This document shows, piece after piece, positions 3,771-20,516 of a stretch of DNA of 64,000 nucleotides. Source of the DNA: Candidatus Saccharimonadales bacterium (GTDB lineage Bacteria; Patescibacteriota; Saccharimonadia; Saccharimonadales; SZUA-47); NCBI GenBank assembly GCA_038211855.1, contig JBBQVE010000001.1, positions 95,309-159,308 on the forward strand, read 5' to 3'. Position numbers and translations under genes: made by a program. The stretch's first letter is position 1; each line of letters opens with the position of its first letter. The notes beneath the pieces are model-generated. The model was not told the DNA's origin, searched no databases, and saw only the letters and a program-made list of their open reading frames with translations.

Positions 3771-5171
3771 CTAGGGTTTTTGCGAGTAGATTGCTTTGGT
3801 TGCCGGAGCATTCTGCCAGGCGAGGTAGAAACGATTCATGTGGTACAGGCAGGCGGTCAATACAACGATGCTGAGCATGAAAGTACCCATAAAACGCGCC
3901 AGAGGATTACGCGGGAAGACACGACGCCATTCTTCAATCAAATAGGCCATTCCACTTCCAGATAACAGATATAAAAATGGCAAAAGCATGAAGAGATAGA
4001 GCTGGTTATTGTTAAGTACAGCCAGCATGATACTGGTTATGGCAGCAAAGGCATATACAATCGTTCGCTCCAACCGCAGGTGCTGGCGGTAAGCGTACAT
4101 GCCAATCAGTAACATCGTACCGGTGAAAGCATCAAGAATCGGTAGTCTACCGAGCGAATAAGCGGGGTTTTCGTTGCTGCGATAGAAAAGAGCTGACGGT
4201 ACGTCTCGAAGCGCAATGAGGCTGTTATGTAACGAATAGTGGCTTGGCAAGAGGAGCCAGTCAATTGCAAGATGGGAATCTTTGTAAAAAGAATAAATCA
4301 GCGGTCCGATCACGATTACCGCAAGTACGCTGCCGGCAATGACGGCCCAGCGCTTCATGAATTTGAAGTAACGCGGTACATCCTTCCAGAACCAGACTGC
4401 CAGCAAGACGATGAACCAGATGGCACCCGGAATGTAGAGTGCAATGGCAATAAGAACGAGCATAACGAGCGGCGCAAAACGGGCTTTTCGAGTGGTTCGG
4501 AACCACAGGACTGCCGCAGCCAACACGAGCCATGAATAAAGCAGAATAGCTGGAGTGGCGACGCGCGCAAGCGTTAAGGTTGTCGAGCTAAGGGCAAAAA
4601 GTATCGTCGTAAGACTAGCAATGCGTGGACGGTACCACTTGCGACATATGCTGTAAAAAGCATAGATTGCGCAGATTGCTAAGCCAGCACTCACAAAGCG
4701 GTGCGACTGGGCCCCTGCCCCAAATTTAATCAGCAAATATGAGAGTAATTTATATGGTAACCACAATGGATTATGTAGGATGGCGGTGAGGCTGCGGCTG
4801 TCGTGCAGAATCTGTAATTCGGCTGGGGACATACCTGGCAAAAAGCCGCGACTGCCGTAGCCATAAAGAAACATCAGCACGCCCAGAATAAAGACATACA
4901 GCGCAGCCGTCGGGCCATGGCGCACCCCGAAACTAATAAGTTTTTTCATATGTTCACGCTTAAGTATACATGGTTTGCAAACCTCGCTAAAGTCTTCATT
5001 GACAGCGATTCCTATGATTCCCCCAGGAGGGTACGGAAAACCGCAAAAGCGGCAAAGTTTCCTCGCAGCACGACAGCTGAGCCCTCCTTGGGTGAAATCA
5101 TAAGAATCGCTCCCACACTCAGTGATATCTGACGCATTACTGAAATCGGTTTGTACCTGATTCGCTTGCAA
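3771..5171 (-). CDS. Polytopic membrane protein, GT-C/ArnT-PMT-like glycosyltransferase, with a possible N-terminal CxxC...CxxC zinc ribbon
   Basis: More than 10 predicted TM helices in a GT39-like architecture. The N-terminal 74 aa contain CRFC...CKPC. The start is uncertain: TTG at 5171 or ATG at 4949. Confidence 0.55.
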   Translation of the reverse strand: MQANQVQTDFSNASDITECGSDSYDFTQGGLSCRAARKLCRFCGFPYPPGGIIGIAVNEDFSEVCKPCILKREHMKKLISFGVRHGPTAALYVFILGVLMFLYGYGSRGFLPGMSPAELQILHDSRSLTAILHNPLWLPYKLLSYLLIKFGAGAQSHRFVSAGLAICAIYAFYSICRKWYRPRIASLTTILFALSSTTLTLARVATPAILLYSWLVLAAAVLWFRTTRKARFAPLVMLVLIAIALYIPGAIWFIVLLAVWFWKDVPRYFKFMKRWAVIAGSVLAVIVIGPLIYSFYKDSHLAIDWLLLPSHYSLHNSLIALRDVPSALFYRSNENPAYSLGRLPILDAFTGTMLLIGMYAYRQHLRLERTIVYAFAAITSIMLAVLNNNQLYLFMLLPFLYLLSGSGMAYLIEEWRRVFPRNPLARFMGTFMLSIVVLTACLYHMNRFYLAWQNAPATKAIYSQKP

Positions 5172-5186
5172 TGAGTACCCAGCGGT

Positions 5187-6545
5187 CTATTCGGTGAAAG
5201 TTTCGGTGTGACGCTTGTCGATACCCTTAAACTGCTGTTTTTCGCGATCGAAGAAGATTTCGACGTGGCCGGTAGGTCCGTTACGATGTTTCTTGATGAA
5301 TAAGTCGACGATGCTGCGCCGCTCGGATTCGGGGTTATAGTAATCTTCGCGGTAAATAAAGGCTACGACGTCGGCATCCTGCTCAATAGAACCGGATTCA
5401 CGGAGGTCGGCCAGCTGTGGAATTTGTGGGCTTCGGCTTTCAACCGAACGGCTGAGCTGGCTGAGGGCGATAATTGGCACATTGAGTTCACGAGCGACAC
5501 TTTTGAGGCCACGGGAGATTTCGGAGATTTCTTGGACGCGATTGCCGTCACCACCAAACTTGCTGCCACCGCTCATCAGTTGCAAGTAGTCGACTACAAT
5601 CAGTCCGAGCGGCCTACGATGCGCCTCGCGTCGGGCCTTGGTGCGGAGGTCGCTGATAGTGAGTCCAGGTGTATCGTCGATAAACATTTGGGCTTCACTG
5701 AGCGAGCCCATGGCTTGGCCAATCTTTTCAAAATCGCTATCTGTTAAATTACCTGTACGCAGGTTCCAAGCGTCAACACCAGCTTCGGCTGCTAACAGAC
5801 GGTCGACTAATTGTTCTTTGCTCATTTCGAGCGAGAACATGACCACTGGGAAGCCGGCTTTCATGGACACATTATGGGCGAAATTAAGTGCCAAGGCAGT
5901 TTTCCCCATCGAAGGACGGGCGGCCAGAATAATCAAATCGCTTCTTTGGAAGCCGCCGAGCATGTTGTCGAGGTCACGGAAACCGGTCGGAATGCCGCGG
6001 ATTTTACCTTTGTCTTTATGTAGCTCATCCAGTCGATCAAAACTGGCACTCAAAATATCCTCGAGACTTACTAAGTCCTGCGACACATGTCGTTGGCTCA
6101 CCTCAAACAGTCGGGCTTCAGCTTCTTCTATCAGATCTTTAAAACTTCGCGCTTCGTCGTAACTGTAGCCGGTAATGTCTTGCGAGGCTTTGATAAGACG
6201 GCGGCGCATGGCCTTGGTGGCGACGATTTCGGCGTATTGCTCAACATGTGTGGCGGTTGGGACGTAGTTCGTAAGTTCGGTGATGTAGCTCGCACCGCCT
6301 ACCGTCGCAAGCAACTCCTTATTTTTGAGCTGTTCGGTGAGCGTGAGAATGTCAATCGGGCTGTGGCGCTCATAGAGACTGACCGCTGCCTCATAAATGT
6401 AGCGGTGACGTTCATCGTAAAAATCCTGCGGCTTAATCAGATCGGCAATCTTGACGATGGCTTCACTGTCAATCAATAGCGATCCAAGCAACGAGGCTTC
6501 AGCTTCGGTGCTCTGCGGCGGTATACGGGCAGCTTTGTCGTCCAT
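5187..6545 (-). CDS. dnaB: Replicative DNA helicase DnaB
   Basis: 452 aa with Walker A ARPSMGKT, the DnaB N-terminal domain PPQSTEAEASLLGSLL, and the RecA-like IVVDYLQLM. Confidence 0.96.
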   Translation of the reverse strand: MDDKAARIPPQSTEAEASLLGSLLIDSEAIVKIADLIKPQDFYDERHRYIYEAAVSLYERHSPIDILTLTEQLKNKELLATVGGASYITELTNYVPTATHVEQYAEIVATKAMRRRLIKASQDITGYSYDEARSFKDLIEEAEARLFEVSQRHVSQDLVSLEDILSASFDRLDELHKDKGKIRGIPTGFRDLDNMLGGFQRSDLIILAARPSMGKTALALNFAHNVSMKAGFPVVMFSLEMSKEQLVDRLLAAEAGVDAWNLRTGNLTDSDFEKIGQAMGSLSEAQMFIDDTPGLTISDLRTKARREAHRRPLGLIVVDYLQLMSGGSKFGGDGNRVQEISEISRGLKSVARELNVPIIALSQLSRSVESRSPQIPQLADLRESGSIEQDADVVAFIYREDYYNPESERRSIVDLFIKKHRNGPTGHVEIFFDREKQQFKGIDKRHTETFTE

Positions 6546-11633: not shown

Positions 11634-12161
11634 TTAATTGGCGGCGTTTTTGGCTGCGACTGCATCCAAGAGGCCGTGGAGGTTGCCTTTGAGGCCGCTC
11701 ATCACACCTTTGACTGGTGACATAAGCGTACTGATAACGCCAGCGATGAGCTGGTTCTTGCTTGGAAGCACCGCGAGGGTTTTTACTTCTTCGGCTGACA
11801 TGAACGTACCGTCAGCCGTGATGGCGCCGACAAATTCAATCGATGGTTCAGTTTTTGCAAAAGCGTACAGGGCCTGCGCTGGGGCGACTTCATCTTCGCT
11901 GTTAAAGGCGTACAATAGCATGCCTTTGATAGCGCTGACATCAGTGCCTTTGATGGCTTCAGTCTGCTCGATGGCCTTGATTGCTAAGCGGTTTTTGACC
12001 ACTTTGACATTGGTACCATTCTCTTTTGCTGTTTTACGAAGTGCTTGGATAGCCTTAACGGTGGTGCCTTCATATTTGGCAACAACCGTCATTTTTGAGG
12101 TTTTTAAAAGCTCTACAACTTCCGCGACTACTTCGTTTTTTTCTACTTTGGTTAAAGGCAT
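11634..12161 (-). CDS. rplJ: 50S ribosomal protein L10
   Basis: 175 aa, immediately upstream of rplL, with an L10-like sequence. Confidence 0.95.
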
Positions 12162-12330
12162 TGCTGCTCCTCACTTTAGTGATTTTTGCCCGTCCTTCGA
12201 CCTTTGGACTGGGCTGATTTATTACCGAGAATTAAAAAACTGCCTCGCTAAAACGGAGACAGCTTGCTAATGCTCAAAAACAAAGAGATTTACATCTGTT
12301 TGCCTCGGTAGCCAATTAAGCGTGTATTAA
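12162..12330 (-). promoter_or_regulatory. rplJ 5' leader with an internal hairpin plus U6 (12234..12262); candidate L10-leader-type autoregulatory attenuator
   Basis: Minus-strand CUGUCUC-CGUUUUAGC-GAGGCAG followed by UUUUUU lies about 70-100 nt upstream of the rplJ ATG, with more stem-loops upstream. Confidence 0.4.
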
Positions 12331-12401
12331 ACGCAGCTACTGTCTTCGGTAACAGAGAGAACTATAGCACAGCGGACGCTTTCTGTAAAGAGTTGCACCT
12401 C

Positions 12402-13151: not shown

Positions 13152-13604
13152 CTAGCGGGCAATCTGGCTGAAACGCAAAGCACTTTCCCAGAGCTGATCA
13201 ATATGTTTTGCAGGATCTATCTGCTCGAGCGCGATTCCCATTACTACTGATCCCCAGAGAGCATGATGCTGCTCTGGTATCTGTCGCCGTGCGAGTGCCT
13301 CAAAAGCAGAATGTGCGGAGAGTTCACCGTTGCCAAAGCCGAGCGCTCCCTCGTATAAGTCCTTGTAATCTGGGTGAAATTCATTAAAAGCTGCAGTCAC
13401 TCCCAAGAAAGGTACATCGAATTCACGACGGGAGGCATCAATTGAGAGATGAACCGGACTCATCATGTCTACTCCAGACATCCAGGAAAAGCGAAAATGG
13501 TAAGCAGTATTTTCTTCTCCTGCAAAAACTGAATAACTGGTGGCTGCGGCTGTAAAACGCTCAGCGGCTGCTTGGTCGGGCTGTATCTGATCAAGTACTG
13601 TCAT
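13152..13604 (-). CDS. Hypothetical protein (150 aa from ATG 13604; the track ORF extends to 13631)
   Basis: Its start is 1 nt after the stop of the upstream ORF (TAAgATG), with an AGGTG SD-like sequence upstream. No recognised motif. Confidence 0.55.
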   Translation of the reverse strand: MTVLDQIQPDQAAAERFTAAATSYSVFAGEENTAYHFRFSWMSGVDMMSPVHLSIDASRREFDVPFLGVTAAFNEFHPDYKDLYEGALGFGNGELSAHSAFEALARRQIPEQHHALWGSVVMGIALEQIDPAKHIDQLWESALRFSQIAR

Positions 13605-13605
13605 C

Positions 13606-13944
13606 TTATTCAGCACCTGAAGCGAATTCATTTGATTGGCTAAAGTGACGCAAACCTACCAAAACCATCGTATTAAAACCGTTCAGATTAGCCAGGAGTT
13701 CATTGACTGCAGCAGGTGGTTCGTTCGATACCAACGTGTCTGATATGGCTTTTGCGGTTGCAAAAGCTCGCAAGGCTTGATAGTGCATGCCTGTTGCGTC
13801 AACACCATATCCAATCAATTCCCATTGCAAATGCTCTTCATGTGTCCGCGGCCTTCGATACCTCGGTTTTGGAGCCTCCGTTGCTTGCTCGCTTGTTCGG
13901 AAATCCAAGTGTTCTATGCCGTTGTCTGGTAGTACATTTGTCAT
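13606..13944 (-). CDS. Hypothetical protein (112 aa)
   Basis: ORF preceded by SD GGAGA, directly after a hairpin plus U-tract. Confidence 0.55.
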   Translation of the reverse strand: MTNVLPDNGIEHLDFRTSEQATEAPKPRYRRPRTHEEHLQWELIGYGVDATGMHYQALRAFATAKAISDTLVSNEPPAAVNELLANLNGFNTMVLVGLRHFSQSNEFASGAE

Positions 13945-13962
13945 GATAGTTCTCCATAAATT

Positions 13963-13991
13963 AAAAAACGGACTTCGTTTCCGAAGCCCGT
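13963..13991 (-). terminator. Hairpin plus U6 (attenuator terminator of leader B)
   Basis: Minus strand ACGGGCUUCG-GAAA-CGAAGUCCGU followed by UUUUUU, ending about 18 nt before the ATG at 13944. Confidence 0.8.
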
Positions 13992-14011
13992 TTGGTGTGG
14001 CTGTGTGGTTG

Positions 14012-14104
14012 CTAAATGGTCGGCTTCAAATCCATAGCAACACAGCCCGTAATAATCACCACGAGGTTGGACTTGAGCGTTGTGTTGAATGAAGTTGTCA
14101 TCAT
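14012..14104 (-). CDS. Candidate leader peptide B, MMTTSFNTTLKSNLVVIITGCVAMDLKPTI
   Basis: 30 codons with SD GGAG (14118..14115) 10 nt upstream. Contains the run GUG GUG AUU AUU ACG. Not in the ORF track because it is under 60 aa. Confidence 0.45.
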   Translation of the reverse strand: MMTTSFNTTLKSNLVVIITGCVAMDLKPTI

Positions 14105-14132
14105 TACTAGGTTACTCCACATTCACATTGTG

Positions 14133-15296
14133 TCAAGCAGTGACACCACGAGCTGCCAATCGTCCACTACGCCCTTGGTACTTGCCTTCTTCGTGAACCG
14201 CATTGGTTGTATGCCCCCAGAAAGTGGGGTCAAACGGCGTGTAAATACGATGTCCGCCCTTCAAGATGCCATCGCTGTGAATGCCCGAGCGATGCGCCAG
14301 AATATCGCTTCCAACGACGGGACTTTGCCGGTCGATTTCGAAGTTGGCGAAATGCATTACAGTTTTTGCAATATTAACGGACAGACCAGGATTAAACTCC
14401 CAGTTAATACGTTTTGGGTAATCCTCGGCAAAACGGAATAAACTGGCGACAATCGGAAATATATTTGCATTTCCTGCTCGCTCGCCTAGACCACAAATAG
14501 TAGTTTCTACCTGGACGCGTATATCATGGGACACGGGAAAATAAGCAGCCGCTTCTATAAGCGCCAAGCTATTTGCTACTGCCATGCCCAAATCATTATG
14601 ATTGTGAGATGAGACTGTCACATCTGGATTTGTAGCCATAACCCACCTTAAAACTTTGCCATAAAATGTTCGCATAAATGCAGGCGAACGCTGTCCGACT
14701 GTGTCAGGAACATTAATGACATCAGCTCCGGCATCTACGGCTGTTTTTACGACTCGTTCAAGATAGTTCATATCTGTAGTTGAGGCGGCTTCTGCTGAAA
14801 ACTCAACACTGGCACCAATGTGATCAGCGCTTATCTCTTTGGCGTACCGCACTGCGTTACGTGCCATATCGTGCACATCATCAGGAGTTTTACTGGGAAA
14901 CTTAGCACTCATATGATGCGGATCGGTGGAGACAAAAGTATGGATGCGCGGTCGAGCGGCGCCCATAACTGCTGCCCATGTTTTTTCTATATCAGAGGGC
15001 AAGGTACGAGATAAGCCGGCAATGACGGGTGGTCTTGCTACTGCCTCGCTCTTACCACTTTCATTCCAACTACAGACGGTGAAGTCAGTGGTACCAACTC
15101 CCATCGCAGCAACTTCTACTTCTTCGGCATCGCTCGGCGTCGCTGGAAAACCAGCTTCAATAACTCCTATACCTAGGTGCGCAATCGCGTTGGCAATTAC
15201 CGGTTTACTGTTGTCAGGAAACTGGTGATCTGCTGGGAGCGATTGCGCGCCGTCCCTTAATGTCGTGTCAAAAAAATCTATATGTATTTCGCCCAT
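14133..15296 (-). CDS. LeuA/CimA/NifV-family (HMGL-like DRE-TIM) acyl-CoA:2-oxoacid condensing enzyme homolog, catalytic domain only
   Basis: FDTTLRDGAQS, HNHNDLGMAVANSLALIEAA. At 387 aa it lacks the C-terminal LeuA regulatory domain. Confidence 0.75.
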   Translation of the reverse strand: MGEIHIDFFDTTLRDGAQSLPADHQFPDNSKPVIANAIAHLGIGVIEAGFPATPSDAEEVEVAAMGVGTTDFTVCSWNESGKSEAVARPPVIAGLSRTLPSDIEKTWAAVMGAARPRIHTFVSTDPHHMSAKFPSKTPDDVHDMARNAVRYAKEISADHIGASVEFSAEAASTTDMNYLERVVKTAVDAGADVINVPDTVGQRSPAFMRTFYGKVLRWVMATNPDVTVSSHNHNDLGMAVANSLALIEAAAYFPVSHDIRVQVETTICGLGERAGNANIFPIVASLFRFAEDYPKRINWEFNPGLSVNIAKTVMHFANFEIDRQSPVVGSDILAHRSGIHSDGILKGGHRIYTPFDPTFWGHTTNAVHEEGKYQGRSGRLAARGVTA

Positions 15297-15315
15297 TGTA
15301 AATCTCCATAAAATT

Positions 15316-15341
15316 AAAAAAACTTCCTTTTGGCTGGAAGT
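15316..15341 (-). terminator. Hairpin plus U7 (attenuator terminator of leader A)
   Basis: Minus strand ACUUCC-AGCCAAAA-GGAAGU followed by UUUUUUU, ending about 20 nt before the ATG at 15296. Confidence 0.7.
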
Positions 15342-15405
15342 CTACTTTTCGTGGGCTGTACTGGGCGCTTTACGCGAGATTCCAACCATGCTTGAGGCAC
15401 AGCCC

Positions 15406-15453
15406 TTAAAGGCTGAGGAGGAGGTTCGCGGTGTGGTCAGATACGAAAGTCAT
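15406..15453 (-). CDS. Candidate leader peptide A, MTFVSDHTANLLLSL
   Basis: 15 codons ending CUC CUC CUC AGC CUU UAA. The RBS is weak or absent. Confidence 0.4.
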   Translation of the reverse strand: MTFVSDHTANLLLSL

Positions 15454-15486
15454 TACTTTAAGAGTACACTGATATTTTGCTACGTC

Positions 15487-15494
15487 AAATAAAA
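15487..15494. repeat. Target-site duplication AAATAAAA (left copy)
   Basis: The identical 8-mer directly abuts the other end of the IS at 17578..17585. Confidence 0.9.
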
Positions 15495-15540
15495 GGCGAC
15501 TCTCCCCTCACAGCAAGTAGAATGATATACTTCATTTTAG

Positions 15541-15699
15541 ATGGCTCTATTACTCCTGATAGCAATTGTGATTATCGTTATAGACTTATATGTACGAATT
15601 AGTGGTGCCAGGAAAACTACGGTTGATCTTGCCAAAGCTGTAAATGAAAAGTTAAAAGAACATGAAGAACGCATAGAGGAACTGGAGAGTAATAACTAG
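15541..15699 (+). CDS. Small membrane protein (52 aa, MALLLLIAIVIIVIDLYV... plus a coiled-coil tail) carried in the IS
   Basis: TGaTATACT extended -10 (15523..15531) lies 9 nt before the ATG. One TM helix. Confidence 0.4.
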   Translation: MALLLLIAIVIIVIDLYVRISGARKTTVDLAKAVNEKLKEHEERIEELESNN

Positions 15700-15710
15700 C
15701 GTAAACGGTA

Positions 15711-15719
15711 TGCTATAAT
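15711..15719 (+). promoter_or_regulatory. Extended -10 element TGcTATAAT inside the IS, not followed by an ORF
   Basis: Followed by two hairpins (about 15746..15782 and 15815..15842) and then the tRNA-like gene. May drive a small RNA or the tRNA. Confidence 0.35.
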
Positions 15720-15814
15720 AACTTTCGTAACAACCCTATAAATAAAACAAGAAGAGAAGAATATGAGCTAACTCTTGTTTTAGGAATTGTTACACCTAAT
15801 AGGCCACACTCACA

Positions 15815-15842
15815 GCCACAAGAGACACTCTTGTGGCTTTTT
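15815..15842 (+). terminator. Rho-independent terminator-like hairpin
   Basis: GCCACAAGAG-ACA-CTCTTGTGGC followed by TTTTT. Confidence 0.7.
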
Positions 15843-15873
15843 CTTTAATAATTTGATGATACATTCCGTTTAT

Positions 15874-15950
15874 ACCGGCGTAACTCAACTGGATAGAGCG
15901 CGTGATTGGCTTTCGCGAAGATGTCGGTTCGAATCCGACCGCTGGTACCA
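15874..15950 (+). tRNA. Atypical tRNA-like gene, anticodon GGC (nominally Ala), encoded CCA
   Basis: Hand-folded cloverleaf: acceptor ACCGGCG/CGCTGGT, T arm GTCGG-TTCGAAT-CCGAC, anticodon arm CGTGA-TTGGCTT-TCGCG. Deviations are A10.C25, U37, and G4:U69 in place of G3:U70. Confidence 0.6.
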
Positions 15951-16156
15951 CCCCTAACGGATGGTAGCAACCCCTTAAAACGTAAGAGACCCGTGATGGG
16001 TCTCCGCGTGATTGGCTGTTTCTATTTTAGCACGGCTAGTCTAAGGGTGCACAGCATTTTCGCATGTGCTAATTAAATGTGCTTAATAATATGCAAAATA
16101 AGTATTACATTAACACCTTACAAAATGCCTTGCATAGCAAGTATATTTGTGATACA

Positions 16157-17011
16157 ATGAAGGTAATGAAGTACACGTTTGCTCAGTTCAAAAAAGAATA
16201 TCCGAACGACTCAGCATGTCTAAAATCTGTCCTAGAAAATCGCTACGGTAACACATGCCCTCGTTGCGGTGTTGTGGGCGTTAAATGGCACCCTATCACG
16301 GGTCGTAAAGGTTTTGTCTGCTCTGAGTGCGACCGCCATATCTACCCGCTTGCAGACACTATATTTCGGAAGTCAGAAACTAGTCTTTGGAACTGGTTTT
16401 ACGCCATTTACCTGTTCTCAGTCGCTAAAAACGGTGTAAGTGCCAAAGAGCTAGAACGGCATCTCGGCTGTAGCTACAAGACGGCGTGGCGTATGGCTAA
16501 ACAGATTCGCTTGCTCATGGAAGTTAATGGTAGCGACCCACTAGACGGTGCTGTAGAAATTGATGAAACATATATTGGTGGTCGCCGTAAACTTGCTCAG
16601 AAGTTCAATAACAAAAGCATCGTATTTGGCATGGTTGAACGTGACGGTCAGATAAAGTCTATGCATGTTAAAAGTGCGGGCAGTCGTGTTTTATTACCTG
16701 TAATTATCAAAGATATTGCACCTACAGCGAGTGTTCATAGTGATGAATGGGGAGCATACCGAACTTTACCTAAACTAGGCTACAGTCATACAACCGTAAA
16801 CCACAGTAAACTAGAGTATGTACGTGGATCGGCTCACACAAACACCATAGAGGGCTATTGGTCACAGCTCAAGCGCTCCGTGGACGGTACATATCACTCA
16901 GTATCGCCTAAATACTTACAGCAATACCTGAACGAGTTCTCGTTCCGCTACAATCTCAGAGGAATTGCTATTTGCCCTGTTCTTTTGGAACGGGCTGGGA
17001 AGCCTTTTTAA
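16157..17011 (+). CDS. IS1595-family (ISXO2-like) transposase
   Basis: N-terminal zinc ribbon CPRCG...CSEC, then a DDE domain (EIDETYIGG...HSDEWGAY...TNTIEGYW). The likely start is ATG 16166, 7 nt after TGaTACAAT; the track ORF starts at 16079. Confidence 0.9.
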   Translation: MKVMKYTFAQFKKEYPNDSACLKSVLENRYGNTCPRCGVVGVKWHPITGRKGFVCSECDRHIYPLADTIFRKSETSLWNWFYAIYLFSVAKNGVSAKELERHLGCSYKTAWRMAKQIRLLMEVNGSDPLDGAVEIDETYIGGRRKLAQKFNNKSIVFGMVERDGQIKSMHVKSAGSRVLLPVIIKDIAPTASVHSDEWGAYRTLPKLGYSHTTVNHSKLEYVRGSAHTNTIEGYWSQLKRSVDGTYHSVSPKYLQQYLNEFSFRYNLRGIAICPVLLERAGKPF

Positions 17012-17041
17012 TTAGCTTTTTGAACAGTTTTTTACTCATAC

Positions 17042-17533
17042 TTAAATTCTAACAGATAACCAGTGCCATAATTTTAACAATCCACCTGCCAATAAAGTTC
17101 CTGCTCCCGCTGCAAGTACATAAGTTAGCATTTTAAAAATCATAGGCCAGTCTTTCCAGAGTTCTTGCCAAAATCCTAACCACGGAAAACTGCTGATAAG
17201 TTTCTTACCATCCCGTGTAATTTTTAAATACATACCTTCGGGATATTTTCTTGATGGTAGTAATTTTAAGTAGTGGTACTCATTTACGGCTAAATCGTAA
17301 ATCTCTTCAGCGTTTACAGGCCCAACTTTTCTGAATCCGTATGACAATAATCTTTTTGTCTCAAATTCAACCACGGCGTGCTGGTCATATGTCATATCAA
17401 TTTCACTAACATAATCTCCAAAAACATTTTTAGGTAATTTATCAGCAATGATACGGTTGCTAAGATATACAGACTTAACGAAAGACCGCATCCTCATCAT
17501 TGTTATCATTCTCTTCAGTATACCCTTATTCAT
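17042..17533 (-). CDS. Hypothetical protein with a C-terminal TM segment (IS passenger)
   Basis: 163-aa ORF lying entirely between the transposase and IR-R. No recognised motif. Confidence 0.5.
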   Translation of the reverse strand: MNKGILKRMITMMRMRSFVKSVYLSNRIIADKLPKNVFGDYVSEIDMTYDQHAVVEFETKRLLSYGFRKVGPVNAEEIYDLAVNEYHYLKLLPSRKYPEGMYLKITRDGKKLISSFPWLGFWQELWKDWPMIFKMLTYVLAAGAGTLLAGGLLKLWHWLSVRI

Positions 17534-17577
17534 GCTTGCGACCCCATGCAGTTACTTGCTGTGAGGGGAGAGTCGCC

Positions 17578-17626: not shown

Positions 17627-18187
17627 ATGAGTGCATTCGAAAGATATAAAAATGATATGACTCCAGAGGAGGCAGCTTCTTATGGATTGCCAGCTTATGG
17701 AGACGCGCGATTAGAACTTGTGAGTCAAATTGAAGAATTGAGCATAGTAAAAGACCAACAGCGTACAGGCAGCCCCTCAAAAGGTTTCGACTTAGCCCTT
17801 AGATCTCTCAAGATAATTACGGGTCAACGCGAAGCGTTTATTGTTCATACTGGTGAAAAAGAGATTATACGTCCCGCGACAATTCATGTGGTGAACGATG
17901 AACCACTTTGGAAAGGCTTCGGACTGGTGTTCCCAAGAATGGCAGATGCGCTGAGCAAACAGATGCATGTGTCGCATGTGCCAGATATTCAGGAAATATT
18001 TCAATCGGATCAACCAACTGAACTCGCTTCGCATGCAGGCATGCTGCTGGTCGCACAGTCAATGGAAGTTGCCATATTCAGAGAACCAAGTATCCAGATT
18101 TGGGCAACAAATCCAGACAGTCACATCATGTTAACTTTCGAATCTGCGCACAATACGATAAATAGATTACCTACTCCATCTGAGTAA
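17627..18187 (+). CDS. Hypothetical protein (186 aa)
   Basis: ORF behind a strong promoter. Its 3' end overlaps the convergent tmk-thyX gene by 17 nt. Confidence 0.6.
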   Translation: MSAFERYKNDMTPEEAASYGLPAYGDARLELVSQIEELSIVKDQQRTGSPSKGFDLALRSLKIITGQREAFIVHTGEKEIIRPATIHVVNDEPLWKGFGLVFPRMADALSKQMHVSHVPDIQEIFQSDQPTELASHAGMLLVAQSMEVAIFREPSIQIWATNPDSHIMLTFESAHNTINRLPTPSE

Positions 18188-20516
18188 GTTTGAACTGTGT
18201 GTAGCGTTCGGCAGCTAGTCGAGTGAGCTCGGCGTCTTCATCGGAGTTGACGAAGCGCATGCCTTCGGCCAGCATTGGATGGACTTCGCCGAGTTTTTCA
18301 TGCATCTGCAGAACGAGTTTGCGATAGCCAGGATGGCCTTGCGGCGTTGATCGCAGTTCATGGATATGAAAGGCCTCACGGGCATTGTACGTGACCTTCC
18401 AGCGCATCTTGTGGCCAAGCAGCGTGGCGTATTGGGCCTCGATTTCGTGGCCGGCGCTTTGTAGGATGCTGTAGAGTTCTAGACTTATCTCAAAACACTT
18501 CTCGAATTGCTCGGTCAGGCCGGCGTCTTCGACAAGTTTTGGAATCTCGTAGCCGTAGCGCGGTGTCAAGAACTGCCACTCCATGTCATCGACGAGGCGG
18601 TGGCGCTGCATGTCGCGGAAAATGCCATAATCACACATGATATCCCAGCTGTAATGGGCTTTTTCAAGTGCCCTGCCTGGCCGGTGGCGGCGGTTGAGAC
18701 GTTCGCCAAAGTACGTCTTCATAATCTGTTCTTTTTCTTTCATGGAAAGCTTGCTGACACGAGTACGGATTTCTTCAAGCGGCATATCGCTGTGCTCGTA
18801 GAGCATGTCTGCACAGAGATCGAGTTCGTTTTTTGGCCAGAAATCGGTCATTGTGACATCGTCCTTGCCTGAGGTGTGCCCAACCGGCAATAGCATATTT
18901 GCGAGTTCTTTGACCGCTTTGTAAGTGTTGGCTTTATATGCAACCAGAGCACCACCGCGTTCTGGCTTGTCAGCGCGCTCCAAAAAGGTACCCATGACTT
19001 TGCGGGCTTCGACGAGCAACTGCTCGCCTGTTTCGCGGGCCTCGGGCAGTTCGTCGGCCAACAGATGCATGATCAAGCTTTCTAGCGCTTGACCGCTGGC
19101 ATAGATGCCCACCGTGGCCTTGGTTGCAACCGGTAAGACTGCACGAATAGCATCGCAGGCTTGGGCACGAGTCGCGCCTTGCCACGCGACATCCTGCTCA
19201 GTTTTCGGTACGTTTGAGCCTTCGCGGACGTAGGTAGTCAATTTTCGGACCATTTCTGAGTACAGGTCAAACAATGAGTTCATGAATTGCTCGTACATGA
19301 CTTTGGTTTTTTTTGGCAACGATTCGGGGGTGTAATAACGATATTTGCCGTCGGCGTCCTTTTGATCGAAATAGATGTAGCGGGTTGATTGCTCCAAATA
19401 GGCAGCAAGGCGGCCCCATTCCAGCTTTTTGGTGAGCAGATTACTGGCGTTCTCGACGACCACGTGCTGACCGACCAGCTGCTGGACCGAATCATCGCCG
19501 TAGGCTGTTATAACGCGCCGGAGTAGTTTTTCGTCTTTACCGGCCGCAGTGGCGAATTCGTCGAGTATGGTGATGCGCATGTCGTCGGCCCGACGTGAAA
19601 GTCGAGCCATTGCGGCTGCAATCGTCATAGCGCTCAATTTGTCGGTAAAGGCGTAGACGTTACCGGTCGGGTTGGTGACAGACTCTTCTAGGAACTCATT
19701 GCCGGCAGCGGTCACCACATAGCGACCGTCTTTGTCTTTTTTGACGTATTCAAGCACTGTTTCGGTCGCAGAATTTTTGTCATCTGGTGATTTGTACCCA
19801 TGGGTGAGCGACCCTTTGGCGTCCTTTGCGGGTGTTGGTAACAGTGGTATGACGCTTTCCCAAATAAGATCATGGATCTGCGGGATGCTCATCAACTCGC
19901 CGCTACGCACGCAATCGATGCGCATAAAGTCTTTCGGAAACAACGAGCACATTTCATCGTATACTTCGACGGATTTTTTGAGGTGTTCGATGTCGGCTTC
20001 GTGGATATCGCGCTTTTTGTCCGTATAGCTGCGTTTGCCTTTTTGGTCAACTAATTGTTGAGCAATCTCGGCTGGTACACGCAATACGACGCTTCTATCG
20101 GGCCGGGGTACGTTCAGCATCTGGAATTCCAGATTATCGACCCAGATGAAATAGCCGCGACGTTCAGCCGAATTCACGAACTTCGTTCCTTGATGCGCCA
20201 TGTTGCTGCCGGTAAAACGGTTGCAAAGCACGACCTTGCCTTCAGCGAGAGCTTTTTGGATGGCAGGAGCGGCTTGGAAACGATCGAGCGCGTAAAAAAG
20301 CGAACCCGTATAAGGACCGACCTGCTCAGCGGTGCCGTAAGCCCCATTCAGATATTGCTCAACAAAGTAGGCTGAGGGCTGCCCATACTGTGGAAAATCA
20401 AACACCACGACATCATGACCACTTTCTGATAAGCGACGGCCTAGCAGATCGAACTGCGTTCCCTTGCCTGAGCCGTCGGTGCCCTCGATCACTAAAAAGG
20501 TACCTTTTTCTGTCAT
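18171..20516 (-). CDS. Fusion protein: N-terminal dTMP kinase (Tmk) plus a long C-terminal ThyX-like (flavin-dependent thymidylate synthase) region with two ThyX-like halves
   Basis: LVIEGTDGSGKGTQ P-loop at the N-terminus. Later WGRLAAYLEQSTRY and QRHRLVD...TPRY resemble split or degenerate copies of the ThyX motif RHRxxSxxxxSxRY. Confidence 0.7.
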   Translation of the reverse strand: MTEKGTFLVIEGTDGSGKGTQFDLLGRRLSESGHDVVVFDFPQYGQPSAYFVEQYLNGAYGTAEQVGPYTGSLFYALDRFQAAPAIQKALAEGKVVLCNRFTGSNMAHQGTKFVNSAERRGYFIWVDNLEFQMLNVPRPDRSVVLRVPAEIAQQLVDQKGKRSYTDKKRDIHEADIEHLKKSVEVYDEMCSLFPKDFMRIDCVRSGELMSIPQIHDLIWESVIPLLPTPAKDAKGSLTHGYKSPDDKNSATETVLEYVKKDKDGRYVVTAAGNEFLEESVTNPTGNVYAFTDKLSAMTIAAAMARLSRRADDMRITILDEFATAAGKDEKLLRRVITAYGDDSVQQLVGQHVVVENASNLLTKKLEWGRLAAYLEQSTRYIYFDQKDADGKYRYYTPESLPKKTKVMYEQFMNSLFDLYSEMVRKLTTYVREGSNVPKTEQDVAWQGATRAQACDAIRAVLPVATKATVGIYASGQALESLIMHLLADELPEARETGEQLLVEARKVMGTFLERADKPERGGALVAYKANTYKAVKELANMLLPVGHTSGKDDVTMTDFWPKNELDLCADMLYEHSDMPLEEIRTRVSKLSMKEKEQIMKTYFGERLNRRHRPGRALEKAHYSWDIMCDYGIFRDMQRHRLVDDMEWQFLTPRYGYEIPKLVEDAGLTEQFEKCFEISLELYSILQSAGHEIEAQYATLLGHKMRWKVTYNAREAFHIHELRSTPQGHPGYRKLVLQMHEKLGEVHPMLAEGMRFVNSDEDAELTRLAAERYTQFKLTQME

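Follow-up and report, generated by a model that had tools for sequence, protein, structure and literature searches.

The DNA analysed here is a 64,000-nt stretch (the window) of a contig from a Candidatus Saccharimonadales bacterium, and the gene and leader described below lie on its minus strand. The gene (14133..15296, ATG at 15296) encodes a short LeuA-family (HMGL-like) protein of 387 aa with a PF00682 match at E 2.3e-46. The protein retains the conserved catalytic motifs DTTLRDG, HNHND, and GERAGNA but not the LeuA_dimer regulatory domain, and its only domain matches are PF00682 and a weak one to HCS_D2. The best matches of the protein are models of 2-isopropylmalate synthase, all scoring below every curated LeuA cut-off; in particular, the best NCBIfam score of 254 bits, against a cut-off of 532, falls short of a LeuA equivalog assignment. 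The closest solved structures are isopropylmalate synthases, and the gene belongs to a large Saccharibacteria family, the nearest member of which is 64% identical. No leuBCD genes lie beside the LeuA-like gene, and a tblastn search found no second LeuA-like gene in the window; IlvE-like and IlvA-like genes occur nearby in two related loci, L161 and L170. A preliminary description of this DNA had called the gene LeuA-family, and the family assignment holds, but the protein is short and without a regulatory domain, and a role in leucine biosynthesis is not established, since the scores lie below the LeuA cut-offs and leuBCD neighbours are absent.

The same description had placed a candidate leader-peptide attenuator in front of this gene, and direct examination of the sequence reproduced all of its coordinates on the minus strand. 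The putative leader promoter consists of a -35-like hexamer TTGACG (15483..15488) and a -10-like hexamer TACTCT (15461..15466), which are separated by a 16-nt spacer and match 8 of 12 consensus positions. Seven nucleotides separate the latter hexamer from the ATG of a mini-ORF (15406..15453) encoding MTFVSDHTANLLLSL*, which has 15 codons plus TAA, compared with 24-29 codons in the orthologues, and ends with CTC CTC CTC AGC CTT TAA; the Leu-Leu-Leu-Ser-Leu codons at 15409..15423 are the putative regulatory ones. Helix P1, described as GGGCTGT (15405..15399) paired with ACAGCCC (15359..15353), is present and in fact longer, with 9 bp including one G.U pair between GGGCUGUGC (15397..15405) and GUACAGCCC (15353..15361), the latter arm being assigned from sequence and family pairing; the window P1 duplex has an energy of -15.8 kcal/mol. 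Between the two arms lie region 1, CUCAAGC (15390..15396), a weak partner of region 2 in helix P2; the region 2 block (15374..15387), in which UGGAAUCU (15384..15377) is the 5' strand of the antiterminator; and P3, a small variable hairpin CGC-GUAAA-GCG (15366..15376) seen both in the fold and by direct reading of the sequence. The antiterminator strands GGAATCT (15383..15377) and AGA(C)TTCC (15343..15336) are found as described. Region 3, AGACUUCC, doubles as the 3' strand of the antiterminator and opens the intrinsic terminator (15316..15343, -8.2 to -9.2 kcal/mol), in which it is followed by a loop, region 4 (GGAAGU), and U7; the hairpin occupies 15343..15320 and the T7 tract 15322..15316. 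The Shine-Dalgarno sequence GGAG of the regulated gene is located at 15304..15307, and the context ...UUUUAAUUU..GGAG.. is kept 3' of the terminator in the orthologues.

An IS1595-family insertion (15495..17577) lies directly upstream of the leader promoter and represents context, not a part of the attenuator. It has a perfect inverted repeat of 25 nt, an 8-bp target duplication AAATAAAA, and a match to DDE_Tnp_IS1595. The two 5' T's of the -35 hexamer fall within the target duplication. A tRNA-Ala is located inside the IS1595-type element.

By itself, the window leader is statistically unremarkable. The RNAfold prediction for 15297..15490 gives z = -0.30 relative to shuffles, and its minimum-energy fold lacks the P1 helix of the preliminary description; in a crude scan of the window, about 20 mini-ORFs combine a Leu run with a T6 tract within 160 nt. 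Folding of this region, which had been proposed as a check, is uninformative when done alone. The significance of the leader comes from conservation and covariation in orthologous loci, and not from the window sequence alone.

The comparison is based on 18 distinct Saccharibacteria loci recovered with the 5' end of the gene, six of them from a genome scan, at least two from a metagenome scan, and the others by exact-protein look-ups; such a look-up found no record of the window's own protein in the scanned collections. A homologous leader is present in 17 of the 18 loci, the exception being the L170/L171 locus with a different Leu-rich leader, and all counts for 18 leaders given below refer to these 17 orthologous leaders plus the window copy. 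The orthologous loci keep both the mini-ORF and its Leu run, on which the preliminary description had staked its reading, and the leader accompanies the LeuA-like gene in varied, unrelated gene neighbourhoods. MAFFT applied to whole leaders misplaced the terminator, and the alignment was rebuilt from sequence anchors with N padding. The covariance model of the family scores the window leader at 74.9 bits and has no match in 152 LeuA-family loci from other phyla.

Judged from the alignment, the short ORF is under selection as a reading frame. Leu fills the four regulatory positions in 15, 16, 18, and 16 of the 18 leaders, at a background Leu frequency of 10%, and is encoded across the set by the synonymous codons CTC, CTT, CTA, CTG, and TTG. 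Read from the start codon, frame 0 meets no stop before the end of region 2 in 17 of the 18 leaders, and the other two frames stay open over this stretch in two and one, respectively; the N-terminal part is 27, 30, or 33 nt long, its length varying in 3-nt steps. The stop codon of the orthologues is TAA, TAG, or TGA and falls 1-14 nt past region 2, the ORFs of L164 and L082 terminating within P3. The mini-ORF is probably leaderless or near-leaderless: a sigma-70-like promoter match of at least 8/12 finishing 6-10 nt before the start codon was found in 10 of 17 orthologues, compared with 5.7% of random positions, and in the window the -10-like hexamer ends 7 nt before the ATG, which makes this ATG a candidate leaderless or near-leaderless start. 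The mini-ORF has no Shine-Dalgarno sequence, and its translation would therefore depend on such a leaderless start.

Both competing helices are conserved and covary. P1 is paired in 94% of cells of the 18 sequences. For the antiterminator (regions 2 and 3), 83% of cells are paired and five pairs have changed on both sides in the sequence-anchored alignment; when it is counted together with a possible local hairpin H0 (CAGCCU:GGGCUG), 20 double-change cells are observed versus 8.1 expected, a number reached in none of 500 shuffles. H0 itself is paired in 90% of cells and shows no double changes. In the terminator helix, 89% of cells are paired and six pairs have changed on both sides, but these counts, unlike those for the antiterminator, are biased toward structure, since the register of region 4 was taken from predicted hairpins. 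For the complete terminator state (P1, P2, and the terminator), 91% of cells are paired, compared with 33-49% when the partners are slid, and nine pairs have changed on both sides. Each of the 18 leaders has a terminator, with energies of about -9 to -19 kcal/mol, and the mean energies of the antiterminator duplex, P2, and the terminator are -14.6, -6.1, and -12.2 kcal/mol, respectively. One C-G to U-A swap, in columns 81/144, is common to the window, L082, L164, and L178. A fifth segment, E0, pairs significantly with region 1 in 10 of the 18 leaders, and its complement is absent from the window copy. Two other pairings were rejected. A helix proposed by RNAalifold between AGCCU of the Leu codons and AGGCU of region 3 is 88% paired, but was equalled in 414 of 500 column shuffles and is unsupported; pairing of the Leu codons with the Shine-Dalgarno sequence as a general feature was discarded as well, since the Leu block beats shuffles in only three of the 18 leaders (mean z of -1.0).

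Folding of transcripts cut just before region 4 shows how the ribosome position could select between these helices. The antiterminator is predicted in 12 of 15 leaders once a ribosome occupies the last Leu codon, and a ribosome placed on the stop codon covers region 2 in all orthologues. When the ribosome is placed at the first three Leu codons, the 5' arm of P1 is free and the equilibrium folds split between P1 (8 of 15) and the antiterminator (7 of 15), and the outcome would therefore depend on kinetics or on pseudoknotted states beyond the folding program. For the naked RNA, folding often predicts the antiterminator form, in which these leaders differ from the trp leader of E. coli.

We consider it likely that these leaders constitute a family, conserved among Saccharibacteria, of transcription attenuators that act through a leader peptide and its ribosome and control the short LeuA-like gene. 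Transcription would start at or a few nucleotides from the AUG of a leaderless mini-ORF of 24-29 codons, in which Leu-Leu-Leu-x-Leu is followed by the 5' arm of P1, region 1, and region 2, with the stop codon 1-14 nt farther on. Region 2 (UUGAAGCCUGA) could pair either weakly with region 1 in P2 or strongly with region 3 (UCAGGCUUCAA) in the antiterminator, and region 3 could alternatively pair with region 4, giving a hairpin with a U-tract just 5' of the ribosome-binding site of the gene. With plentiful Leu-tRNA, the ribosome would get to the stop codon and cover region 2, so that the terminator forms and transcription ends; with scarce Leu-tRNA, the ribosome would stall at the Leu codons, and the free region 2 would pair with region 3 and let the polymerase enter the gene. 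The attenuator reading of the preliminary description is well supported by the conservation of the mini-ORF, the Leu run, P1, the antiterminator, and the terminator at the orthologous gene. Its proposed logic, in which a stalled ribosome masks P1, may still apply to the window copy; in the family, the stop codon of the orthologues lies 1-14 nt after region 2, and the main off-switch would therefore be the ribosome covering the antiterminator strand.

A second copy of this scaffold is found in the window, also on the minus strand. Leader B (13958..14136), a putative paralogous attenuator, is a full-length match to the covariance model built from the Leu leaders (scaffold 14104..13958, 32.7 bits, E about 1e-6 to 5e-6). 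It has a candidate promoter (TTGACA, 14136..14131; TAACCT, 14114..14109), the mini-ORF MMTTSFNTTLKSNLVVIITGCVAMDLKPTI* (14104..14012), P1 (14048..14041 with 14007..13999), and a terminator with U6 that ends near 13963 and folds at -18.5 kcal/mol. At the place equivalent to the Leu run it carries Leu-Val-Val-Ile-Ile-Thr codons. A regular-expression scan had missed leader B because of these Val and Ile codons instead of Leu, and it was the covariance model that detected it. Related loci contain other Ile-rich leaders with terminators 5' of RidA-IlvA and other genes. The ORFs that follow leader B and the Ile leaders gave no family or PDB match and are not mutually homologous.

The Leu leader of the window itself has all the RNA parts but is derived, and it may regulate more weakly or differently. 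Of the 18 leaders, it alone has a stop before region 2: the TAA at 15408 directly follows LLLSL, at a place where the others have a sense codon, and precedes the end of the region 2 core by 30 nt. If this TAA were a sense codon, the frame would reach a UAA in the P3 loop, as in L164. The window antiterminator (-6.9 kcal/mol, compared with -9.2 for its own terminator) and the window P2 (-2.0 kcal/mol, compared with the family mean of -6.1) are the weakest of the set. Because the TAA immediately follows the Leu run, only the P1-based logic is left in this copy, in which the 5' arm of P1 would be covered by a ribosome standing on the final Leu codon or on the stop codon. In view of the early stop, the weak antiterminator, and the missing E0 segment, a normal response of the window copy is doubtful.

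A serious possibility, to which we give somewhat less than even weight, is that the family is a real attenuator but the window copy has lost leucine sensing, the gene being either mostly terminated or constitutively read through. The TAA would then halt the ribosome short of region 2, the pairing of region 2 with both region 1 and region 3 would be weakened, and the IS element, which adjoins the -35 box with its target duplication, may alter the promoter strength. In agreement with such a loss, folds of truncated window transcripts form the antiterminator both with a ribosome at the stop and without a ribosome. On the other hand, the strong P1 would be masked by a ribosome at the last Leu codon and may lock region 2 after the ribosome is released, so that the P1 logic could yet give a leucine response. 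Regions 2, 3, and 4 of the window have changed together, as they have in L082 and L164, and this implies that selection has continued to act on both helices. The regulated gene is intact and keeps all residues that are invariant across 26 aligned family members. Known attenuators such as pheL have leaders that end immediately after their regulatory codons.

For the family as a whole, it is very unlikely that the RNA is conserved as a riboswitch-like or protein-binding element of the kind proposed for the actinobacterial LEU element, with the mini-ORF and the Leu codons as by-products of structural constraint. The ORF largely overlaps conserved helices, so that conservation of amino acids (GLCF-M-EA) is inseparable from RNA constraint, and the Leu codons overlap the mostly paired hairpin H0; yet no H0 pair has changed on both sides, and the Leu codons vary synonymously. 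The variable N-terminal third contains no stop in any leader and differs in length only by multiples of 3 nt. The start codon always holds the same position, and the stop likewise keeps its place although different stop codons are used. Leader B retains the scaffold with its codons changed to Val and Ile. In the leuA leader of Streptomyces, mutated Leu codons are reported not to have had the classical effect (PMC1262725), which would fit a structural element, but the hallmark of the LEU element, the pairing of Leu codons with the Shine-Dalgarno sequence, is significant in just three of the 18 leaders here, and no Rfam family matches.

We give very little credence to the view that the product of the mini-ORF is a functional hydrophobic micropeptide made from the same transcript as the LeuA-like gene, the hairpins being ordinary processing or terminator signals. 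Some leader peptides, such as peTrpL, are known to act in trans, and the peptide length and the LLLSL..GLCF motif are conserved in the present family. However, conservation of the peptide is poor at the N-terminus and at the C-terminus falls where the RNA is paired, and the window copy has lost the whole GLCF..EA part while keeping the RNA; a terminator placed between the peptide gene and the next gene, together with an antiterminator that covaries, is characteristic of a switch. Finally, a chance combination of a short ORF, the terminator of an upstream transcript, and a promoter has a negligible probability: it would suit the single-sequence fold and the similar Leu-run mini-ORFs of the window, but is already contradicted by the conservation and covariation among orthologues, by the persistence of the element beside the LeuA-like gene in unrelated neighbourhoods, and by the family-model score.

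The usual picture of CPR bacteria (Patescibacteria), to which the tiny, host-dependent Saccharibacteria belong, is one of minimal regulation and absent amino-acid biosynthesis. A conserved and covarying Leu attenuator with Val/Ile versions would mean that these bacteria retain transcription control coupled to tRNA charging. The attenuator would also label an orphan LeuA-like enzyme as one wanted when leucine is scarce, making its role in an epibiont testable, and the covariance model now allows annotation of a new family of cis-regulatory RNAs. Our literature searches found no paper linking Saccharibacteria or Patescibacteria with attenuation or isopropylmalate synthase, consistent with the earlier suggestion that the mechanism had not been described in CPR bacteria; one paper reports leuA among the genes expressed by groundwater ultra-small bacteria and archaea. 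The leaders represent a new RNA family with a known, textbook mechanism that is apparently undescribed in this group.

A broader proposal, which we regard as unlikely, is that Saccharibacteria, being unable to make amino acids, monitor the charging of their own Leu-, Ile-, and Val-tRNA by leaderless attenuators, and that the Leu sensor switches on an orphan isopropylmalate-synthase-like enzyme. This enzyme lacks the regulatory domain and would therefore not be feedback-inhibitable. Possibly, 2-isopropylmalate or a related 2-alkylmalate would be handed to the host, the leucine-inhibited first step of the host would be bypassed, and the host would make leucine for the epibiont. If so, the attenuators would offer a first view, at the level of regulation, of how a CPR episymbiont extracts nutrients.

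Among known systems, the closest in design are the enterobacterial attenuators, namely leuL-leuABCD (Rfam RF00512, Leu_leader) and those of trp, his, phe, thr, and ilv. They share with the Saccharibacteria leaders a short ORF ahead of the regulated gene, in which codons for a single amino acid are clustered, and mutually exclusive antiterminator and terminator helices followed by a U-tract, the ribosome position being decisive (here, by inference); in the case of leuL-leuABCD, the first gene is a LeuA homologue in both. The enterobacterial architecture invoked in the preliminary description is analogous but not homologous: no Leu_leader match exists, and the Saccharibacteria leader has no homology to the enterobacterial ones in sequence or structure. 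At the Rfam gathering score, the window and 17 loci contain only tRNAs and an L10 leader, and no Rfam leader family was found at E up to 10 in 15000..16200 of the window or in 2750..3050 of L162. The Saccharibacteria leader further differs in having no Shine-Dalgarno sequence, being apparently leaderless, and in the regulatory codons, which lie upstream of the competing segments and not inside region 1. It has an extra helix P1 enclosing P2 and P3, with E0 in 10 of 18 leaders, and the gene stands alone, without leuBCD.

In Corynebacterium, leader peptides have been described for leu (MNRANLLLLRRGGSQA*) and for ilvB (MNIIRLVVITTRRLP), the latter on a leaderless transcript (PMC5784534, PMC1262725, PMC11857589). 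These actinobacterial leaders are likewise leaderless peptides with runs of Leu or Ile/Val codons followed by terminators before leuA or ilvB, and NLVVIIT of leader B and MEIIITR* of L161 resemble LVVITTRR of the actinobacterial ilvB leader. The RNA scaffold of the Saccharibacteria leaders is different, however, and homology is not detectable. Cultivated Saccharibacteria have Actinobacteria as their known hosts. The organism studied here is a CPR bacterium that, to our knowledge, has no complete pathway for branched-chain amino acids. Mutated versions of similar-looking leaders upstream of Streptomyces leuA and ilvB are reported to have departed from classical attenuator behaviour (PMC1262725). 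The actinobacterial LEU element is a pseudoknot with no terminator, the base stem of which pairs the Leu codons with the leuA Shine-Dalgarno sequence (PMC1262725). It resembles the present leaders in the upstream ORF with Leu codons and the conserved alternative structures before leuA; by contrast, a U-tailed terminator is found in all leaders here, and the Leu-codon pairing in few.

The T-boxes of Firmicutes (ilv-leu, leuA) are also attenuation switches that report the charging of a specific tRNA. They bind the uncharged tRNA directly and do not require translation; searches of the window and of the orthologous loci gave no T-box match. In mycobacteria, leaderless uORFs rich in Cys codons control an operon through the speed of translation at the codons of one amino acid. 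Related cys leader peptides have been described (PMC1262725). The mycobacterial uORFs have no obvious intrinsic terminator and are thought to use a different mechanism, whereas the Saccharibacteria leaders combine a hairpin and U-tract with a covarying antiterminator.

All features of the leader in front of the LeuA-like gene of the window (leader A), which the preliminary description had combined into a leuL-type attenuator, were found on the minus strand where it had placed them. The mini-ORF (15453..15406) encodes MTFVSDHTANLLLSL; its stop codon adjoins GGGCUGU, which pairs with ACAGCCC (15359..15353) to form helix P1, extendable to 9 bp (15405..15397 with 15361..15353). The antiterminator strands are GGAAUCU (15383..15377) and AGA(C)UUCC (15343..15336), the latter also forming the 5' arm of a terminator hairpin that is followed by U7 (15322..15316), and 19 nt separate the end of the U-tract from the ATG (15296) of the 387-aa gene. 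By itself, this sequence is little proof. Folding of 15297..15490 with RNAfold, the check named in the preliminary description, gave z = -0.30 against dinucleotide shuffles, and the P1 helix proposed there was absent from the minimum-energy fold. A crude scan of the window detected about 20 mini-ORFs with a Leu run and T6 within 160 nt, and leader A matched no Rfam family at E up to 10.

As far as sequence comparison can tell, the orthologous loci settle whether leader A is a real element. Among loci drawn from genomes, metagenomes and assemblies, 18 distinct ones had the 5' flank, and the Leu leader, on whose presence at such loci the original proposal had been staked, has a clear homologue in 17 of them, in quite different gene neighbourhoods. 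The exception is the Saccharibacteria locus L170 (2861..3000, identical in L171), where an unrelated Leu-rich mini-ORF, MLRNILNLNLLESVN, with 5 Leu in 15 codons precedes a GC-rich hairpin, which suggests that the Leu leader was replaced or independently invented. Throughout the family, the Leu codons are followed by the P1 5' arm (GGGCUGUGC), region 1 (UUCAA..), region 2 (..UUGAAGCCUGA), a small and variable hairpin P3, the P1 3' arm (GCACAGCCC), a linker, region 3 (UCAGGCUUCAA), a loop, and region 4 (GAAGCCUGA) with the U-tract and the ribosome-binding site behind it. Since region 1 is nearly identical to region 3, and region 2 to region 4, the pairings 1:2 (P2), 2:3 (antiterminator) and 3:4 (terminator, T) are all possible.

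In its pattern of conservation, the mini-ORF behaves like a coding frame with the consensus M-FNQK---LLLSL--GLCF-M(V/I)EA*. Between the start codon and the end of region 2, 17 of 18 leaders have no stop in frame 0, compared with two and one for the other two frames; the poorly conserved N-terminal part measures 27, 30 or 33 nt in all 18, and the stop codon, for which all three triplets occur, lies 1-14 nt past region 2 in 17/17 orthologues. The four Leu positions are filled by Leu in 15, 16, 18 and 16 of the 18 leaders, spelled CTC, CTT, CTA, CTG or TTG, against a background of 10% Leu codons in the window's genes. Sigma-70-like hexamers, with the -10 box ending 6-10 nt upstream of the start codon, match at 8/12 positions or better in 10 of 17 orthologues vs 5.7% of random positions (TTGACG-16-TACTCT-7-ATG in the window copy). 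This spacing indicates that the mini-ORF is probably leaderless, which would explain why that of leader A has no Shine-Dalgarno sequence.

Sequence anchors guided the alignment of the 18 leaders except in region 4, whose register was taken from predicted hairpins. In the terminator state (P1+P2+T), 91% of cells are paired vs 33-49% with slid partners, with both-side changes at nine pairs. The antiterminator, whose strands were aligned by sequence only, has 83% of cells paired and both-side changes at 5 pairs; for example, C-G is replaced by U-A in the window, L082, L164 and L178, and A-U and U-A by G-C in the group of L004, L174 and L176. Together with H0, a possible local hairpin CAGCCU:GGGCUG overlapping the Leu codons, the antiterminator has 20 double-change cells vs 8.1 expected, a value reached in 0 of 500 shuffles; the 18 leaders share descent and shuffle controls therefore overstate significance, the better covariation evidence being the slid-partner controls and the compensatory changes. 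An RNAalifold helix between the Leu codons and region 3 was rejected, as its support did not exceed column composition. A further segment, E0 (codons 4-8; e.g. CAGAAGCAC), complementary to the end of the P1 5' arm and region 1, was found in the leaders of L001, L003, L081, L162, L164, L167, L168, L172 and others. Compared with shuffles, this complementarity reaches significance in 10 of 18 leaders; in L004 and L176, where region 1 is GCUUU, E0 reads AAAGC, and neither reaches p<=0.05. E0 drives many naked RNAs into the antiterminator fold, and it may serve as a pause or synchronising hairpin.

With mean energies of -14.6 kcal/mol for the antiterminator duplex, -6.1 for P2 and -12.2 for the terminator, the antiterminator is predicted to be much stronger than P2 and comparable to the terminator. 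We folded transcripts ending just before region 4 with the ribosome at defined positions. With the A site on the last Leu codon, the antiterminator formed in 12 of 15 leaders; with the ribosome at the stop codon, region 2 was covered in every orthologue, so that the terminator is the only structure able to form. Stalls at the first three Leu codons leave the P1 5' arm free, and the equilibrium folds divide into 8 with P1 vs 7 with the antiterminator; P1 and the 2:3 pairing could also coexist as a pseudoknot, beyond the scoring of the folding program. The simplest reading of these folds, with function deduced from sequence, is that the off-switch is most likely occlusion of region 2 at the stop position: a ribosome running to the stop would occlude region 2 and transcription would terminate, whereas one held on the Leu codons would leave region 2 free to pair with region 3, and the gene would be transcribed.

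The window copy is atypical. Its ORF is the only one to stop before region 2, with TAA at a codon that in other leaders is, for example, CAA, TCA or ACC; without this stop, the ORF would continue to a UAA in the P3 loop, the situation seen in L164. The P1-masking logic of the preliminary description is the only means left in this copy by which translation could be coupled to the switch. Impaired regulation of the window copy is a possible reading, though less likely than not: besides the early TAA, its P2 (-2.0) and antiterminator (-6.9, vs its own terminator at -9.2) are the weakest of the set, no E0 segment was found, and an IS1595-type element of 2083 bp (15495..17577), bounded by perfect 25-bp inverted repeats and flanked by an 8-bp target duplication, AAATAAAA, lies immediately upstream of its -35 box, yet the changes in regions 2, 3 and 4 are coordinated, P1 is a strong helix (-15.8), the LeuA-like gene is intact and the copy scores 74.9 bits with the family model. 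The element carries a transposase (16079..17011), tRNA-Ala(GGC) (15874..15950), and ORFs of 52 and 163 aa; a tRNA gene is an unusual IS cargo.

That the covariance model recovers the sequences it was trained on is no evidence; independent tests are provided only by leader B and the negative sets. The model had no matches in 152 LeuA-family loci from other phyla, and its second full-length match (13958..14074, minus strand, 32.7 bits, E about 1e-6 to 5e-6) falls in leader B (13958..14136, minus), directly after the LeuA-like gene. Leader B is served by a promoter of its own (TTGACA-16-TAACCT), shares P1, region 2 and region 3 with the family, and has a strong terminator (-18.5 kcal/mol) and a mini-ORF (14104..14012, minus; MMTTSFNTTLKSNLVVIITGCVAMDLKPTI) with Leu-Val-Val-Ile-Ile-Thr in place of the LLLSL of leader A. 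One scaffold with different regulatory codons would be hard to explain except by ribosome-mediated sensing. The two downstream minus-strand ORFs of 112 aa (13606..13944) and 150 aa (13152..13604), which matched nothing in Pfam, NCBIfam or PDB sequences and share no homology with the ORFs that occupy this place in related loci, appear to be under Val/Ile-codon control. In other loci, the position of leader B is taken by Ile-rich leaders of another class, which are shorter and have GC-rich terminators: L161 (4207..4326; MEIIITR*, before RidA and threonine dehydratase), L163 (4194..4317; MLIIMTRSMIVKIIDNPLTRD), L003 (about 5206..5320; MAQTTIIKIIRDSV), L001 (about 5286..5410; MIVDMYIAIIQIIGGTVSAE) and L168 (about 4232..4355; MTHKNIISKVIFLPATAR). 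Each contains a GCGCGG/CGCGGG strand able to pair with the terminator 5' arm.

The product of the regulated gene carries an HMGL-like domain and is closest to 2-isopropylmalate synthase models, though far under all their curated cut-offs; its nearest solved structures are isopropylmalate synthases, and domain searches found no C-terminal regulatory domain. It belongs to a large Saccharibacteria family of 387-400 aa (closest member, 64% identity). No leuBCD genes lie near it, although in some relatives it has IlvE-like and IlvA-like neighbours: in L161 (1884..6195) and L170 (4742..7170), genes for a class IV aminotransferase (IlvE-like), for RidA and for a threonine dehydratase (IlvA-like) adjoin it, a partial branched-chain amino-acid gene set in a lineage presumed to have no pathways of this kind. 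The order Thy1/Tmk, LeuA-like, L10/L12 is common to the window, L163 and L168; the thymidylate kinase-ThyX (Thy1) fusion (781 aa; 18171..20516, minus) is kept in L161, L163 and L168, and a ribosomal protein L10 leader (RF00557, 62 bits; 12225..12367, minus) precedes rplJ (11634..12161).

A T-box reading was rejected, no curated RNA family matching the window leader or its orthologues, and the actinobacterial LEU element was set aside, its Leu-codon:Shine-Dalgarno stem not being shown here. Among the papers searched, none connected attenuation or isopropylmalate synthase with the Saccharibacteria or Patescibacteria, in agreement with the earlier remark that the mechanism had not been described for CPR. 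Mutants of the Streptomyces leuA and ilvB leaders, which are similar in appearance, are reported in a review not to have behaved classically (PMC1262725). The proposed mechanism would be the same as in enterobacterial leuL, classical leader-peptide attenuation, and most similar to it are the leaderless leader peptides of leu and ilvB in corynebacteria (PMC5784534, PMC1262725).
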